Below the pieces are notes generated by a model. The model was not told the DNA's origin, made no database searches, and saw only the letters and a program-made list of their open reading frames with translations. From an uncultured Erysipelotrichaceae bacterium (GTDB lineage: Bacteria > Bacillota_I > Bacilli_A > RFN20 > CAG-826), in assembly GCA_902802905.1 (NCBI GenBank), contig CADCNT010000002.1, positions 79,879-143,878 of the forward strand: 64,000 nucleotides of DNA, given 5' to 3'. Positions 38,785-49,315 of this stretch are shown here, one piece after another. A program made the translations under genes and the position numbers. Numbering within the stretch: position 1 is the stretch's first letter; every line of letters starts with the position of its first letter.

Positions 38785-39318
38785 ATGGGTAGAAGAAGGA
38801 AGAAAAGAAGAACTCTTCGGACAACTGAAGAGATACCAAAGGAAATAGCAACACCTCCACATAGACTCACATTTGAAACTGACTCAAAGCTAATTAAAGT
38901 CACTGCCAACATTAGAGATTGCTTAAGAACTAGAAGTATTAGGTCTTGTCTCAAATGTTGTAGGTGGCACGAGTGTAAGACTAGATTGGAGGGGATTAAG
39001 GTGGATGAGATTATCTTGAAAGTATCTTGGCAAGATTTTAAGAAGATTGAACGAGATGAAATTCGAGAGATTAGATCACTCACCAATCTAGCTACATTTC
39101 CACTACTGATATACCTCTATGTAGAACCTCCTTATTACGAAAGAGATAAGAAAGGTGAAATCAAAGGTGTCATCGAAGTAGTCAAAGATAAAACAACGAA
39201 TCAATGGAAGATAGACATGTTCTGGTATCCATTGATATCAGTGATTCCATACTTCATGAGATATGCCGCCAAGGATTGGACTTGGAGTTGGATATCACGA
39301 GAAAACAACAAAAAATAA
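38785..39318 (+). CDS. Hypothetical phage protein (basic N-terminus, Cys-rich segment)
   Basis: This is the only open frame here. 177 aa. CLRTRSIRSCLKCCRWHEC. Confidence 0.4.
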   Translation: MGRRRKKRRTLRTTEEIPKEIATPPHRLTFETDSKLIKVTANIRDCLRTRSIRSCLKCCRWHECKTRLEGIKVDEIILKVSWQDFKKIERDEIREIRSLTNLATFPLLIYLYVEPPYYERDKKGEIKGVIEVVKDKTTNQWKIDMFWYPLISVIPYFMRYAAKDWTWSWISRENNKK

Positions 39319-39347: not shown

Positions 39348-40763
39348 ATGAGAGATGATGATTTTTGTCAGTTAAACCTCTTTAATTCGTTTAGAGATTA
39401 TAAGAAGTTTGATTCTAACAAGAAATTATTGGTGGTTGAATTCTTCTCCGGGATTGGTGCTACTGCACAAGGATTAAAGAATCTCGGAATCAAATTCACT
39501 CATCATCGAACATGTGAATGGTGTTCAGTAAGTATCAAAGCATACAACATGATTCACATGAAAGACACTACTGATTACTCCAAAGATTTGACCAAGGATC
39601 AACTAATTGCATACCTTGATGGGAATATCTCAACTGATTGGAACACATTATGCAATGTCAAAAAGCAAAATGAGAAATGGTTGAGAGAGACATATAACAA
39701 TTGCATTGCCACTCATAACATGATGAATATCTCGAATGTTCATGGAGAAGATTTGGGAATTCCTTATTCCGATGATTATGAAACATTTTGTTCTTACTCA
39801 TTTCCATGCCAAGACTTGTCTCTTGCTGGAAAGATGAAAGGAATGGAAGAAGGTTCTGGAACACGAAGTTCACTACTCTTTGAGTTCTTACGAATATTAA
39901 GAGAAATAGATGAACTCTATAAACAAGGTAAAAGTGGAAGAATCACTTATCTCTTGATGGAGAATGTACCAGAAGTCATTGGTTCAAAAAATGTGAAGCA
40001 ATTCGTTAAGTTTGAAGAAGAACTAACGAAACTCGGATATACAAATTTTGGTGGAATCTTGAATGGCAAGAATTACTGCATACCACAAAACCGTAGGAGA
40101 TTCTTCTTATTCTCGATTCTTGGTGATTATTCATATGACTTTCCTAAAAGAAGAGAACTGAAATATCACCTTAAGGACTTTTTAGAAGATGAAGTTGATG
40201 AAAAATACTACTTGTCACAAAGAATGATTAACTTCTTCATGTCCAACACCGAGAAACAAGCCGAGAGCGGCAATGGGATTAAAAGCAAATCCATTGCCGC
40301 TACTGATGAAGGTTCGATTGCTCGAACCATTACCACTAAAGCTGGTAGTCGAATGGATGATAACTTCATTATCTACGAAGATGAAGAAGATGACTCCGAA
40401 GAAGTGACAACTCATCAAGACTTAAAAGAAACTCTTGAGGGGGGGGTTATTGAAGAAGGAGACTTTGTCGACACATACAATCGAACGATTAAGAAAGATG
40501 GATGCAGTGGCACTATCACAACTAGGATCAGTGAATGCAATCATCAATATGTAGTTGTGAAAGGCAAAACTATCAAAATCAAGAATGCCACAAAAAAAGG
40601 GTATATCGAAGCTGAAGTCGGTGATGCAATCGATATCTCTGGAAGAATGCAATATCACCGAGGAACGGTTCAAAAAGGAATCAGCCAAACAATCACTACA
40701 ATGGGCGGAGATAATGTTGCAGTGGTTGTAGAAGATAAAGGAGACAACGATGAAGAAAAATGA
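39348..40763 (+). CDS. DNA (cytosine-5) methyltransferase, large ORF: motifs I-VIII plus three TRD-like units
   Basis: FFSGIGA (I), SFPCQDLS (IV), MENV (VI), QNRRRFF (VIII). Then ARTITTK, SGTITTR and SQTITTMGG units. The start is set at 39348, not 39204. Confidence 0.85.
   Translation: MRDDDFCQLNLFNSFRDYKKFDSNKKLLVVEFFSGIGATAQGLKNLGIKFTHHRTCEWCSVSIKAYNMIHMKDTTDYSKDLTKDQLIAYLDGNISTDWNTLCNVKKQNEKWLRETYNNCIATHNMMNISNVHGEDLGIPYSDDYETFCSYSFPCQDLSLAGKMKGMEEGSGTRSSLLFEFLRILREIDELYKQGKSGRITYLLMENVPEVIGSKNVKQFVKFEEELTKLGYTNFGGILNGKNYCIPQNRRRFFLFSILGDYSYDFPKRRELKYHLKDFLEDEVDEKYYLSQRMINFFMSNTEKQAESGNGIKSKSIAATDEGSIARTITTKAGSRMDDNFIIYEDEEDDSEEVTTHQDLKETLEGGVIEEGDFVDTYNRTIKKDGCSGTITTRISECNHQYVVVKGKTIKIKNATKKGYIEAEVGDAIDISGRMQYHRGTVQKGISQTITTMGGDNVAVVVEDKGDNDEEK
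40439..40446 (+). repeat. G8 homopolymer inside the C5-MTase large ORF (in frame, encodes part of EGGV)
   Basis: gaGGGGGGGGtt, read directly. This is the longest G run seen in the window. Confidence 0.95.
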
Positions 40764-41151
40764 GTATGTTGGAGTGTTCGACATTAAAGAATCCGATACA
40801 TTTCGACCAACACTTGAATCAAGAATCCATTTAGACTCACCAGTCTCCAAGACATTAACTTGTCGAGAGGATAGCTGCGGTGTCATCGAGAGAGAGAGAG
40901 AGAGTAGACTCCGAATCCGAAAACTCACTCCGAGAGAATGTTTCCGCCTTATGGGTTTCGATGATGACTCATTTAATTCTCTTGAAGGTCAATTCTCAAA
41001 CAACAATCTCTATCATCTTGCCGGAGACTCAATCATCAGTGTTGTTATCTCATACATATGTCTAGGTCTTATGGAAGATGAAAAAGAAGCTGAAAGCAAA
41101 ATTCAAAAATATGTCGATACATTAAAGGAGGACAAAGATGGAAACAAATAA
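40750..41151 (+). CDS. DNA (cytosine-5) methyltransferase, small ORF: fourth TRD-like unit plus motifs IX-X
   Basis: SKTLTCRED, RKLTPRECFRLMGFDD (IX), AGDSI (X). It has its own AAAGGAG RBS 7 nt upstream and overlaps the large ORF by 14 nt. Confidence 0.8.
   Translation: MKKNEYVGVFDIKESDTFRPTLESRIHLDSPVSKTLTCREDSCGVIERERESRLRIRKLTPRECFRLMGFDDDSFNSLEGQFSNNNLYHLAGDSIISVVISYICLGLMEDEKEAESKIQKYVDTLKEDKDGNK
40888..40904 (+). repeat. (GA)8 tract inside the C5-MTase small ORF (in frame, encodes ERERE)
   Basis: GAGAGAGAGAGAGAGAG, read directly. It lies about 15 nt upstream of motif IX. Confidence 0.95.
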
Positions 41152-41876
41152 GATTTACTTCGGTGATGCATATGAACTCATTAAGGAAATCCCGGATAAA
41201 TCAATCGACTTAATTTATACTGATCCACCTTATGACTTCCATAGTGGAACTGCAGTATCTGGTGGAATCTTCAAAGATAGAGAATGCAAACCATATCAAG
41301 ATGTGGTTGATGCCAAATTAAATGCTGGAATAGACAACTCAATCTTGGATGAATTTGTAAGAATACTAAAGCATATATATATATATATGGTGCAACAAGT
41401 CTCAAATTCCGTTCTATCTAAATTACTTCTTGTCTTATCCAAATATAAGTTTCGAGATTCTAACATGGCACAAGAAAAATCCATCACCAATTACAAAAAA
41501 CACATTCTTACCAGATACCGAATACTGCCTTATGTTTCGAGAAAAGGGTGTGTGCCTATTAAATGATGGATATGAATTAAAACATAAGTATTACATCTCA
41601 AGTACCAACAAAGATGACAAAGATGATTACTTGCATCCGACAATCAAACCAATTGAATTTGTCGAAAAGCACATTGCTCATTCTACTCAAGTCGGTGATA
41701 TCGTATTTGATCCATTCTTGGGTAGTGGCACTACTGCACTTGCAGCTAAACATCTTGGAAGAAAATATATCGGATTTGAAATCAATGAGACTTATTACAA
41801 AATCGCGGTTGACCGTTTACAAGGAATCAATCAAAAAGGAGAGATGAATCTCTTCGACATAATGGGAGATGAATGA
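41138..41876 (+). pseudogene. Beta-class DPPY (N6-adenine-type) DNA methyltransferase, frame-shifted at an (AT)8 tract (phase-OFF allele)
   Basis: Frame 1 carries IYTDPPYDF up to the tract. From the tract on, the +1 frame reads IYIWCNKSQ...ILTWHKKNP...HPTIKP...FDPFLGSGTTALAA. (AT)9 would give one 246-aa ORF. Confidence 0.85.
41373..41388 (+). repeat. (AT)8 tract at the frameshift point of the DPPY methyltransferase
   Basis: gcATATATATATATATATgg, read directly. Confidence 0.95.
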
Positions 41877-42260: not shown

Positions 42261-43156
42261 TGAATTACTACTCTTCGATAGATTAGAAATCATTAAAACC
42301 ACTATCAATAAATATGGAATAGATAATTTCTACTTATCGTTCTCTGGTGGTAAAGATTCCACTATTCTCCATCACTTGATAGATATGGCACTTCCGGGAA
42401 ATAGAATTCCAAGAGTGTTTGTAAACACTGGAATCGAATACAACATGATTGTTCAGTTTGTTAAGGATATGGCAGCTAAAGATGACCGATTCGTAATCAT
42501 TGCACCAAGTAAACCAATTAAAAAGGTGTTAGAAGAATTCGGTTATCCGTTCAAATCCAAAGAACACTCACTACGAGTTTACCAATTCAACAAAGGTCAA
42601 AACTCGAATTACATCAAGAAATACATATCTGGTTATGACCATAATGGCAAAGAATCGACATTTGTATGTCCAAAGATTCTCAAGTATCAGTTTGAGGAAA
42701 GAGGTAAATACAACTACTCAAATCTATGTTGCCAAAAACTGAAGAAAGAACCAGTTCATAAATGGGAGAAGGAAAACCATAAGTCCATTGCGATGACTGG
42801 TATGAGAGCGGAGGAAGGTGGCAATCGAGCAAGACTCGGATGCATCATCACCGACTCTAAAGGAAGATTGAAGAGATTCCATCCACTCATCAAAGTCGAT
42901 GAACAATGGGAAGATTGGTTATTAGAGAGAGAGAGAGAGAATAGCACTCGCACCACTCTATTGCCAACCATTCAACTTCAAAAGGACCGGATGTAAAGGA
43001 TGCCCGTTCAGTCTTGAACTCCAAGAACAACTTGACATCATGCAAATCTATCTCCCGGCTGAACGAAAACAATGTGAATTCATTTGGGAGTATGTCTACA
43101 AGGAATATCGAAGAATCGGATATCGATTGAAAGACAAAATCACTATTTGGGATTAA
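42253..43156 (+). pseudogene. PAPS/APS-reductase-like PP-loop protein (DndC-like fold), frame-shifted at a (GA)8 tract (phase-OFF allele)
   Basis: SFSGGKDS PP-loop and LCCQKLKKEPV in frame 0. After the tract the +1 frame reads IALAPLYCQPFNFKRTGCKGCPF... through to a stop at 43154-43156. The start is set at ATG 42253 (AAAGGAGAAAG RBS). Confidence 0.8.
42924..42940 (+). repeat. (AG)8A / (GA)8 tract at the frameshift point of the PAPS-reductase-like gene
   Basis: ttAGAGAGAGAGAGAGAGAat, read directly. Confidence 0.95.
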
Positions 43157-49063: not shown

Positions 49064-49315
49064 TGTTCCACACGAAATGGCATAGGGGGGGTTGAAAATT
49101 CGAAAAAAGGTCGATTTTTGACACCGGGTGTGGACCACAAAAATATATATTCCAAAAATGGATAAAAAAGGACAAATGAGAGGAAATTTGAACAAATTTC
49201 AGCAACTAACTCCATCTTCATTAGAATCTCCTTATTTATAACTAAATACTAGCTGAAGTTGGTTGCTTAAAATTGTTGGAAAATCGTAGATCAAAAATTT
49301 ATAAAGGAGGAGTCT
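49064..49315. other. Non-coding gap between HNH and terS: candidate cos region
   Basis: 252 nt without a credible ORF. Locally GC-rich elements: a G7 run at 49085-49091 and the palindrome ACACC-G-GGTGT at about 49121-49131. Confidence 0.35.

Follow-up and report, generated by a model that had tools for sequence, protein, structure and literature searches.

A 64-kb stretch of DNA from a metagenome-assembled genome (MAG) of an uncultured Bacilli bacterium (contig CADCNT010000002.1, positions 79,879 to 143,878; hereafter the window, whose own numbering is used throughout) carries two overlapping open reading frames (ORFs) that together encode a cytosine-5 (C5) DNA methyltransferase. A run of eight guanines (G8) lies inside the larger of the two. 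Out-of-frame alleles of this run are common in the natural populations of the phage group to which the gene belongs, they arose repeatedly, and they are otherwise intact. From these comparisons of sequences we consider it likely that the G8 is a hypermutable slipped-strand contingency tract in an early-region C5-methyltransferase of a temperate phage with an uncultured Bacilli host. Alleles that keep the frame are called ON here, and those that do not are called OFF. The gene pair contains the following features.

39348..40763, + strand: large subunit of the C5-methyltransferase, 471 aa from the ATG at 39348 (the longest ORF starts at 39204), with motifs I-VIII and three units resembling target-recognising domains (TRD-like units)
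40320..40370, + strand: core of TRD-like unit 1, ARTITTKAGSRMDDNFI, conserved among homologues and present in every tract-OFF allele
40371..40403, + strand: acidic linker YEDEEDDSEEV, with in-frame 3n indels among relatives and an AlphaFold confidence score (pLDDT, predicted local distance difference test) of ~27-37
40439..40446, + strand: G8 tract, the putative slippage site; the frame is kept by G8 (or G11)
40447..40763, + strand: segment 3' of the tract, with TRD-like units 2 (GDFVDTYN..GTITTR) and 3 (KNATKKGY..SQTITT), lost from the large subunit if the tract is out of frame
40737..40743, + strand: predicted ribosome-binding site AAAGGAG of the small-subunit ORF
40750..41151, + strand: small subunit, with TRD-like unit 4 (SKTLTC), motif IX (RKLTPRECFRLMGF), motif X (AGDSI) and a (GA)8 repeat at 40888-40903

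The large subunit matches PF00145 in Pfam (E=1.1e-35), and the motifs of a C5-methyltransferase are divided between the two ORFs: FFSGIGA, FPCQD, MENVP and QNRRRFF are found in the large ORF, which ends without motifs IX and X, and RKLTPRECFRLMGF and AGDSI are found in the small one. The ATG at 39348, with GGAG upstream of it, is the likely start of the large subunit; MRDDDF is the start of most homologues. The nearest solved structure is that of M.MpeI, a mycoplasma CpG methylase (4dkj, E=1.9e-26), and the alignment to it spans residues 70-336, i.e. the catalytic domain only, with the variable region unaligned. We do not count the enzyme as a member of the M.SssI / M.MpeI group, which is defined by CG specificity and an orthologous TRD, although it would work in the manner of the mycoplasma poly(G) genes. 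An AlphaFold2 model of the large subunit is confident in the catalytic domain and has pLDDT values below ~56 in the variable region; because it is confident for the catalytic domain only, the model has no bearing on the effect of an OFF tract.

The small-subunit ORF starts at the ATG at 40750, lies in the +1 frame relative to the large ORF, and overlaps it by 14 nt (40750-40763). The sequences indicate that this division is natural, with a split in the variable region and both ORFs conserved, as in M.AquI, because the split point is common to many homologues (others are fused) and because a 3-nt insertion in one relative, L002, leaves both frames open. We also considered whether the two ORFs are normally fused, which the loss of a single A from the A5 run at 40756-40760 could in principle bring about, and rejected this since the open-frame split is conserved. 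The two ORFs together hold four T-[IL]-T-[TC] units, of which the three in the large ORF are built around T-I-T-T, and these units are shuffled among homologues. Translation bears out the arrangement proposed by an earlier, sequence-only reading of the window, in which the tract falls between the first and second of these units: unit 1 (ARTITTKAGSRMDDNFI) precedes the acidic linker YEDEEDDSEE, after which come ...KETLEGGV and unit 2 (GDFVDTYN...GTITTR). The tract itself encodes the Gly-Gly of ...YEDEEDDSEEVTTHQDLKETLEGGVIEEGDF..., which puts it past unit 1 and the acidic linker, where unit 2 begins. On related contigs of 36-38 kb the C5-methylase comes after genes for a serine recombinase, a repressor and a replisome organiser, and by this gene content we assign the element to the temperate phages. 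The relatives of the rpoB gene place the host MAG in the Bacilli.

The G8 at 40439-40446 reads ctt gaG GGG GGG Gtt, or L-E-G-G-V in the frame of ORF 39204/39348..40763, just as the sequence-only reading had it, and is a simple-sequence tract within an ORF (39348..40763), as is characteristic of contingency loci. That reading was also right that no longer G/C homopolymer occurs in the window, which has a GC content of 35.4%; the runner-up is a G7 at 49085-49091, and C runs of six or more are absent from the 64 kb. Across the whole assembly (1.54 Mb in 25 contigs, 35% GC), G/C runs of 5, 6, 7 and 8 number 96, 11, 3 and 2, respectively. Relative to an independent-base model, runs of 5 and 6 are depleted 3.6- and 5.5-fold, and runs of 8 are not depleted. 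The way in which the two glycines are spelled is more unusual. On the + strand of the window 6.7% of the Gly codons are GGG, and of 33 Gly-Gly pairs none but that at the G8 site is written GGGGGG; because GGG is rare among Gly codons, this spelling is an unlikely one.

If the tract is a contingency locus, its length should differ between relatives with conserved flanks, and this is what we found. The close relatives, all from metagenomes (rumen and gut) and IMG/VR, fall into three clusters in a protein search, with 77-99% identity. The sequence-only reading had named two observations that would count against a switch, namely a G8 fixed in deep, accurate reads and in all relatives, and a GGxGGx spelling at the equivalent position in close homologues. 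Among the assembled contigs neither is seen: each of the 21 loci compared, the window included, carries a pure G run, and these runs have four lengths (G7 in one contig, G8 in 10, G9 in nine and G10 in one).

G7: L004
G8: the window, L002, L005 and L113-L119
G9: L003, L008 and L101-L107
G10: L006

Within a single study, WILK20-1, one sample has G8 and three others have G9. Among the 32 distinct proteins listed that span the site, 25 are in frame (...LEGGV...), six end in ...LEGGGY* and one has the tail expected of G7. OFF alleles were over-represented in our DNA look-ups, so their frequency is better judged from the proteins (22% OFF). Other searches added no close relatives. The region had no megablast match in the phage collection, and all tblastn hits were distant methylases of less than 60% identity (at most 37% among the best 25 listed). 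A related-locus search of genome contigs found nothing, and in 300 species genomes of the host family only pieces of distant methylases turned up at the DNA level. An exact pattern scan of viral contigs that included the downstream flank had no match, because this flank carries a substitution in the sole close relative from IMG/VR.

The consequences of a change in length are simple to read from the sequence. It had been proposed from the sequence alone that gain or loss of one G would truncate the enzyme after the first TRD-like unit, and natural G9 (...LEGGGY*) and G7 alleles encode exactly such truncations. When the change is simulated in the window sequence, the products are 471 aa (G8), 368 aa (G9) and 401 aa (G7), and the natural G9 and G7 products are precisely those of the simulation. 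The sites involved are these.

40435..40437, + strand: TTG opening a 109-aa remainder ORF in G9 alleles (M-RGGVIEEGDF...; P0123 and P0124, called on 7 contigs)
40451..40453, + strand: TGA ending the G9 (or G6) product, ...LEGGGY*, 368 aa; natural alleles P0004, P0126, P0140, P0144, P0145 and P0147
40552..40554, + strand: TAG ending the G7 (or G10) product, 401 aa with a 35-aa out-of-frame tail; natural allele P0006/L004

The G7 allele reads ...LEGGLLKKETL.... G9 alleles retain an intact 109-aa segment 3' of the tract, free of stops, and an intact small ORF, such that the frame is toggled with the rest of the gene kept. The 109-aa remainder ORF is a gene-caller prediction with no obvious Shine-Dalgarno sequence at its TTG, and this TTG is a possible candidate for re-initiation. 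Altogether, a length that varies in relatives, a frame that toggles with it and a gene that is otherwise intact support the suggestion, first made from the sequence alone, that the G8 is a contingency locus. A recoding of the G8 site that would lock the tract is GGAGGTGG.

We next considered how often OFF alleles have arisen. In a maximum-likelihood tree of the part of the gene upstream of the tract, OFF alleles are found in each of three well-supported clades, and some of them are otherwise identical to ON alleles (P0140 and P0146, for instance). The tree indicates at least three origins of the OFF state and probably six or more, with the caveat that recombination could blur the count. The integrity of the alleles was assessed with a MAFFT alignment and with relatives of at least 97.6% identity; blastn alignments with the divergent relatives L002, L102, L004 and L101 produced compensating gap pairs, which are alignment artefacts and were not used. 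When the 1.8-kb gene pair was aligned with six relatives, indels that are not multiples of three were confined to the G tract or a (GA)n repeat, and all other indels were multiples of three. Among the closest relatives (97.6-97.9% identity over up to 7 kb), net indels are found only in the G tract, in two (GA)n repeats, in an (AT)n repeat, or as a small spacer inversion. The A/T runs of at least 7 served as controls, and in ten comparisons they showed zero length changes. The lengths of the neighbouring repeats, i.e. (AT)n of 8-11 units, the small-subunit (GA)n of 6-10 and the (GA)n of 8-10 in a PAPS-reductase-like gene, combine variably with the length of the G tract. As judged from these alignments, the pattern of indels fits a reversible switch under purifying selection and is at odds with gene decay or random sequencing error.

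The tract also persists where its surroundings have changed. L003 has a pure G9 despite diverged flanks (67% identity downstream, and a preceding codon changed from GAG to GCG). In L008, unit 1 and the linker are followed by a G9 tract and then directly by motif IX, and L006 has a G10 at the same unit-1 junction, which is in frame there. Because the same junction is kept in the L008 and L006 architectures, the comparison indicates that the tract and the 3' edge of the unit-1 module move together. The order motif VIII, unit 1, tract, motif IX is seen in L008 only; we had also regarded L006 as a possible single-TRD enzyme, and dropped this because more methylase pieces lie at the other end of the record. 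In homologues of 60% identity or less the position of the tract lacks glycine, for example ...ETIESNNVKDGDF....

To place the tract in its wider family we examined 80 distant homologue loci (31-50% identity, from metagenomes), which comprise 110 kb of methylase span and 208 kb outside it. The methylase spans contain 25 G runs of at least 7, where shuffling predicts 2.8 (no more than 7 in any of 200 shuffles), an enrichment of ~9-fold; outside the methylase spans there are 16 further such runs, and C runs were not found in the 80 loci. The G runs in the distant loci have lengths of 7, 8, 9 and 10 in 13, 19, 8 and 1 cases, with a mode of 8. Of 27 that are entered by a long ORF, 17 are in frame and 10 meet a stop within 40 codons. 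Seven loci (L027, L063, L023, L050, L066, L072 and L076) each have between two and five G7-G10 runs, every one of them on the coding strand, with four or five per locus in L027 (3414-4146) and L063 (2043-4738). Several of the distant-locus runs encode GGG following a T-L-T-type core, and some are located in adjoining N6-methylase genes (L063:2043, L067:1948).

DNA methylation shields phage DNA from classical restriction enzymes and exposes it to methylation-dependent ones. We propose that one G would be gained or lost at replication by slipped-strand mispairing, shifting the frame right after unit 1 and the acidic linker. Such switching would be fast and reversible, going by what is known of slipped-strand mispairing and of the poly(G) tracts of mycoplasmas (PMC9465063). 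Motifs IX-X and unit 4 would be supplied by the small subunit, which has start signals of its own. By analogy, an OFF tract probably removes units 2 and 3, and so switches the repertoire of the enzyme, rather than removing all methylation, because motifs IX-X belong to the small subunit, whose separate ORF has a ribosome-binding site to itself, and because truncated N-terminal fragments of C5-methylases can complement C-terminal ones (PMC3404938). Mixed progeny would then be a bet-hedge between hosts with methylation-sensitive and hosts with methylation-dependent restriction, as is suggested by extension from recent work on phages (PMC12633550). A broader and more speculative proposal, which we think may hold but would not favour at present, is that the methylase is modular, with two subunits and several built-in break points of which the tract is one, that motifs IX-X are supplied in trans, that slippage takes units off the large subunit one at a time and thereby re-programs the set of methylated sequences without turning the enzyme off, and that G runs at unit junctions are a family-wide design of C5-methylases in gut and rumen phages. 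Here the tract is combined with three other candidate repeat switches and with a flip-flop hairpin in the same gene.

Several points weigh against these interpretations. The independent-base model expects ~2 runs of 8 in the genome and the observed count matches this, so the run alone is not beyond chance. Recombination between phages could carry one OFF allele into other backgrounds. The contigs compared differ by 2-6% (and by up to ~17% in the gene pair), such that a slippage rate far above the rate of point mutation is not demonstrable from them; the evidence consists of comparisons between assembled contigs, and some of the source assemblies could stem from platforms prone to homopolymer error. 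Lastly, the step from truncation to a pruned repertoire rests on analogy, as AlphaFold has low confidence across the variable region, and complementation in M.SssI was efficient only with an intact small domain (PMC3404938).

The agreement of the genome-wide count of G/C runs of 8 with chance also speaks for an alternative that we consider improbable but worth weighing: the tract could be a mutational hotspot that is not a selected switch, in which an accidental spelling of a Gly-Gly linker gives rise to G7 and G9 alleles that are either transient loss-of-function mutants, purged by selection, or the tolerated decay of a gene the phage can do without. That ON alleles are in the majority (25/32) would also be expected under this alternative. 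An accidental spelling, however, does not readily account for the retention of a pure G run across clades and in two gene architectures despite a codon bias against GGG, nor decay for OFF alleles that have no secondary damage. Moreover, three more repeats in adjoining DNA-modification genes vary in the same contigs, and the variable regions of distant homologues have their own ~9-fold excess of G runs, again most often of length 8. We prefer a contingency tract over an unselected hotspot.

It is far less probable that the length differences are homopolymer errors of sequencing or assembly and that every phage truly has G8. Homopolymers are the classic site of indel errors, yet at least nine independent contigs have G9 as their consensus, drawn from at least two studies and assembled by two pipelines (ENA scaffolds and Logan contigs), and the WILK20-1 study by itself gives G8 in one sample and G9 in three. 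The A/T runs of 7-8 in the same alignments are constant in length, and errors would not be expected to cluster in exactly four repeats. Equally improbable is programmed slippage of RNA polymerase or the ribosome, by which one genotype would yield full-length and truncated large subunits with DNA variation being secondary: homopolymers can cause transcriptional slippage and both products are plausible subunits, but the variation is seen directly in DNA, known transcriptional slippage sites are to our knowledge mostly A/T runs of at least 9, and no stimulatory structure was noticed, although no search was aimed at one.

How does a contingency tract in this gene compare with known systems? The Bacillus phages SPR, phi3T, rho11s and H2 encode multispecific C5-methyltransferases with tandem target-recognising domains between motifs VIII and IX, and removal of one domain results in the loss of one specificity. 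The window enzyme may resemble these, as a phage C5-methylase with several tandem units in its variable region that are TRD-like by sequence, although identity to the Bacillus phage enzymes is only ~22% (tblastn). The latter differ from it in being single polypeptides without known repeat tracts. In phasevarions, simple repeats control the Type III mod and Type I hsd N6-adenine methyltransferases of host bacteria and thereby alter host gene expression (summarised in PMC9465063). Here too the length of a repeat in a methyltransferase ORF would be the switch; in contrast to phasevarions, the enzyme is a phage C5-methylase in a replication/early module, for which an anti-restriction role seems more likely.

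The closest parallel in mechanism is found in the CpG C5-methylases of mycoplasmas, which are phase-variable through a mid-gene poly(G) of 6-11 in M. agalactiae and through poly(GA) in M. pulmonis and M. crocodyli (PMC9465063). As in those genes, a mid-gene poly(G) that differs in length between strains truncates a C5-methylase, and poly(GA) is also present, in this case in the small-subunit ORF. The window enzyme differs in being phage-borne (in a Bacilli MAG), in having two subunits and several TRD-like units, and in the position of its tract, which lies between TRD units after motif VIII; truncation leaves motifs I-VIII and one unit, with motifs IX-X encoded separately. Two-subunit C5-methyltransferases are known in M.AquI and M.EcoHK31I, and fragment complementation is known in M.SssI, M.HhaI and M.BspRI (PMC3404938). 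As in M.AquI and M.EcoHK31I, the small subunit here holds the remainder of the variable region and motifs IX-X. None of these two-subunit or complemented enzymes is reported to have a mutable tract or several TRDs, and assembly of the window pair is a prediction from sequence.

Among phages, the A-runs of T2 agt and T4 rIIA have been described as contingency loci (Gomez, Barrick and Waters, bioRxiv 10.1101/2025.10.21.683753 = PMC12633550); the word 'methyltransferase' is absent from the text of that study. Those loci share with ours a homopolymer in a phage gene, which in T2 is a DNA-modification gene, and they give rise to reversible frameshifts and to mixed progeny as a bet-hedge against host defence. 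They differ from ours in that they are A-runs of virulent coliphages with laboratory evidence, whereas the window tract is a G-run of a temperate phage with comparative evidence only.

That repeats drive phase variation of methyltransferases in host bacteria is well known; for phages such variation has been proposed only recently, in virulent coliphages in the laboratory. The tract described here would extend the same logic to natural populations of a temperate phage of uncultured gut/rumen Bacilli, with ON and OFF alleles from many metagenomes, and a wider pattern is hinted at by the strong enrichment of G runs across a large family of phage C5-methylases, in their variable regions. If specificity is indeed re-programmed and the enzyme not simply lost, a phage population would have a simple genetic means of sampling several epigenetic disguises. 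It would also bear on phage host range, on the arms race between restriction and anti-restriction, and on how 'frameshifted' methylase genes are read in metagenome annotation.

The neighbourhood of the tract contains other variable repeats. The (GA)8 in the small-subunit ORF (40888-40903) lies just 5' of motif IX and has 6, 7, 8 or 10 units in relatives; six contigs with an identical large-subunit protein have 6, 7 or 8 units at this site. An (AT)8 at 41373-41388 breaks an adjoining DPPY-type N6/N4 methylase (ORFs 41138..41566 and 41430..41876), with 8, 10 or 11 units in relatives, and the (GA)8 at 42925-42940 in the downstream PAPS-reductase-like gene has 8, 9 or 10. In some relatives the catalytic domain has an extra (GA)n, encoding RERERE, that lies past the motif-V region and before motif VI (ENV) (L008:79-96; P0028, P0041, P0121); in L008 the frame changes at this tract and the G9 is out of frame as well.

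Additional G/C runs occur elsewhere in the genome. The other run of 8 is a C8 in AT-rich sequence on contig 16 (G000:C16:22640-22647), and contig 20 (G000:C20:194-200) has a G7 and a G6 that are 22 bases apart in similar contexts (CTCAGGGGGGGACA / TAGAGGGGGGACA). The G7 at 49085-49091 is in the same prophage as the G8 tract, in an intergenic gap directly after a stop codon (..IIFKK*).

The methylase ORF also contains a hairpin at 40266-40301, just upstream of TRD-like unit 1, which consists of 11-bp perfect inverted arms, AGCGGCAATGG (40266-40276) and CCATTGCCGCT (40291-40301), around a 14-nt spacer (40277-40290). The spacer is found in both orientations among relatives, and both are in frame: the window, L003 and L119 encode GNG-IKSKS/IKRES-IA, and the other 16 loci have the exact reverse complement, which encodes GNG-FAFNP-IA. 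P0001/P0002 and P0136/P0138 differ by the spacer flip alone, and both orientations are present in all three clades. The flip is most simply explained by recurrent inversion of the spacer through template switching, and the hairpin could be a candidate fifth switch. Both types of pentapeptide, xKxKS/T and FxFxP, are also represented among homologues of 50-60% identity.

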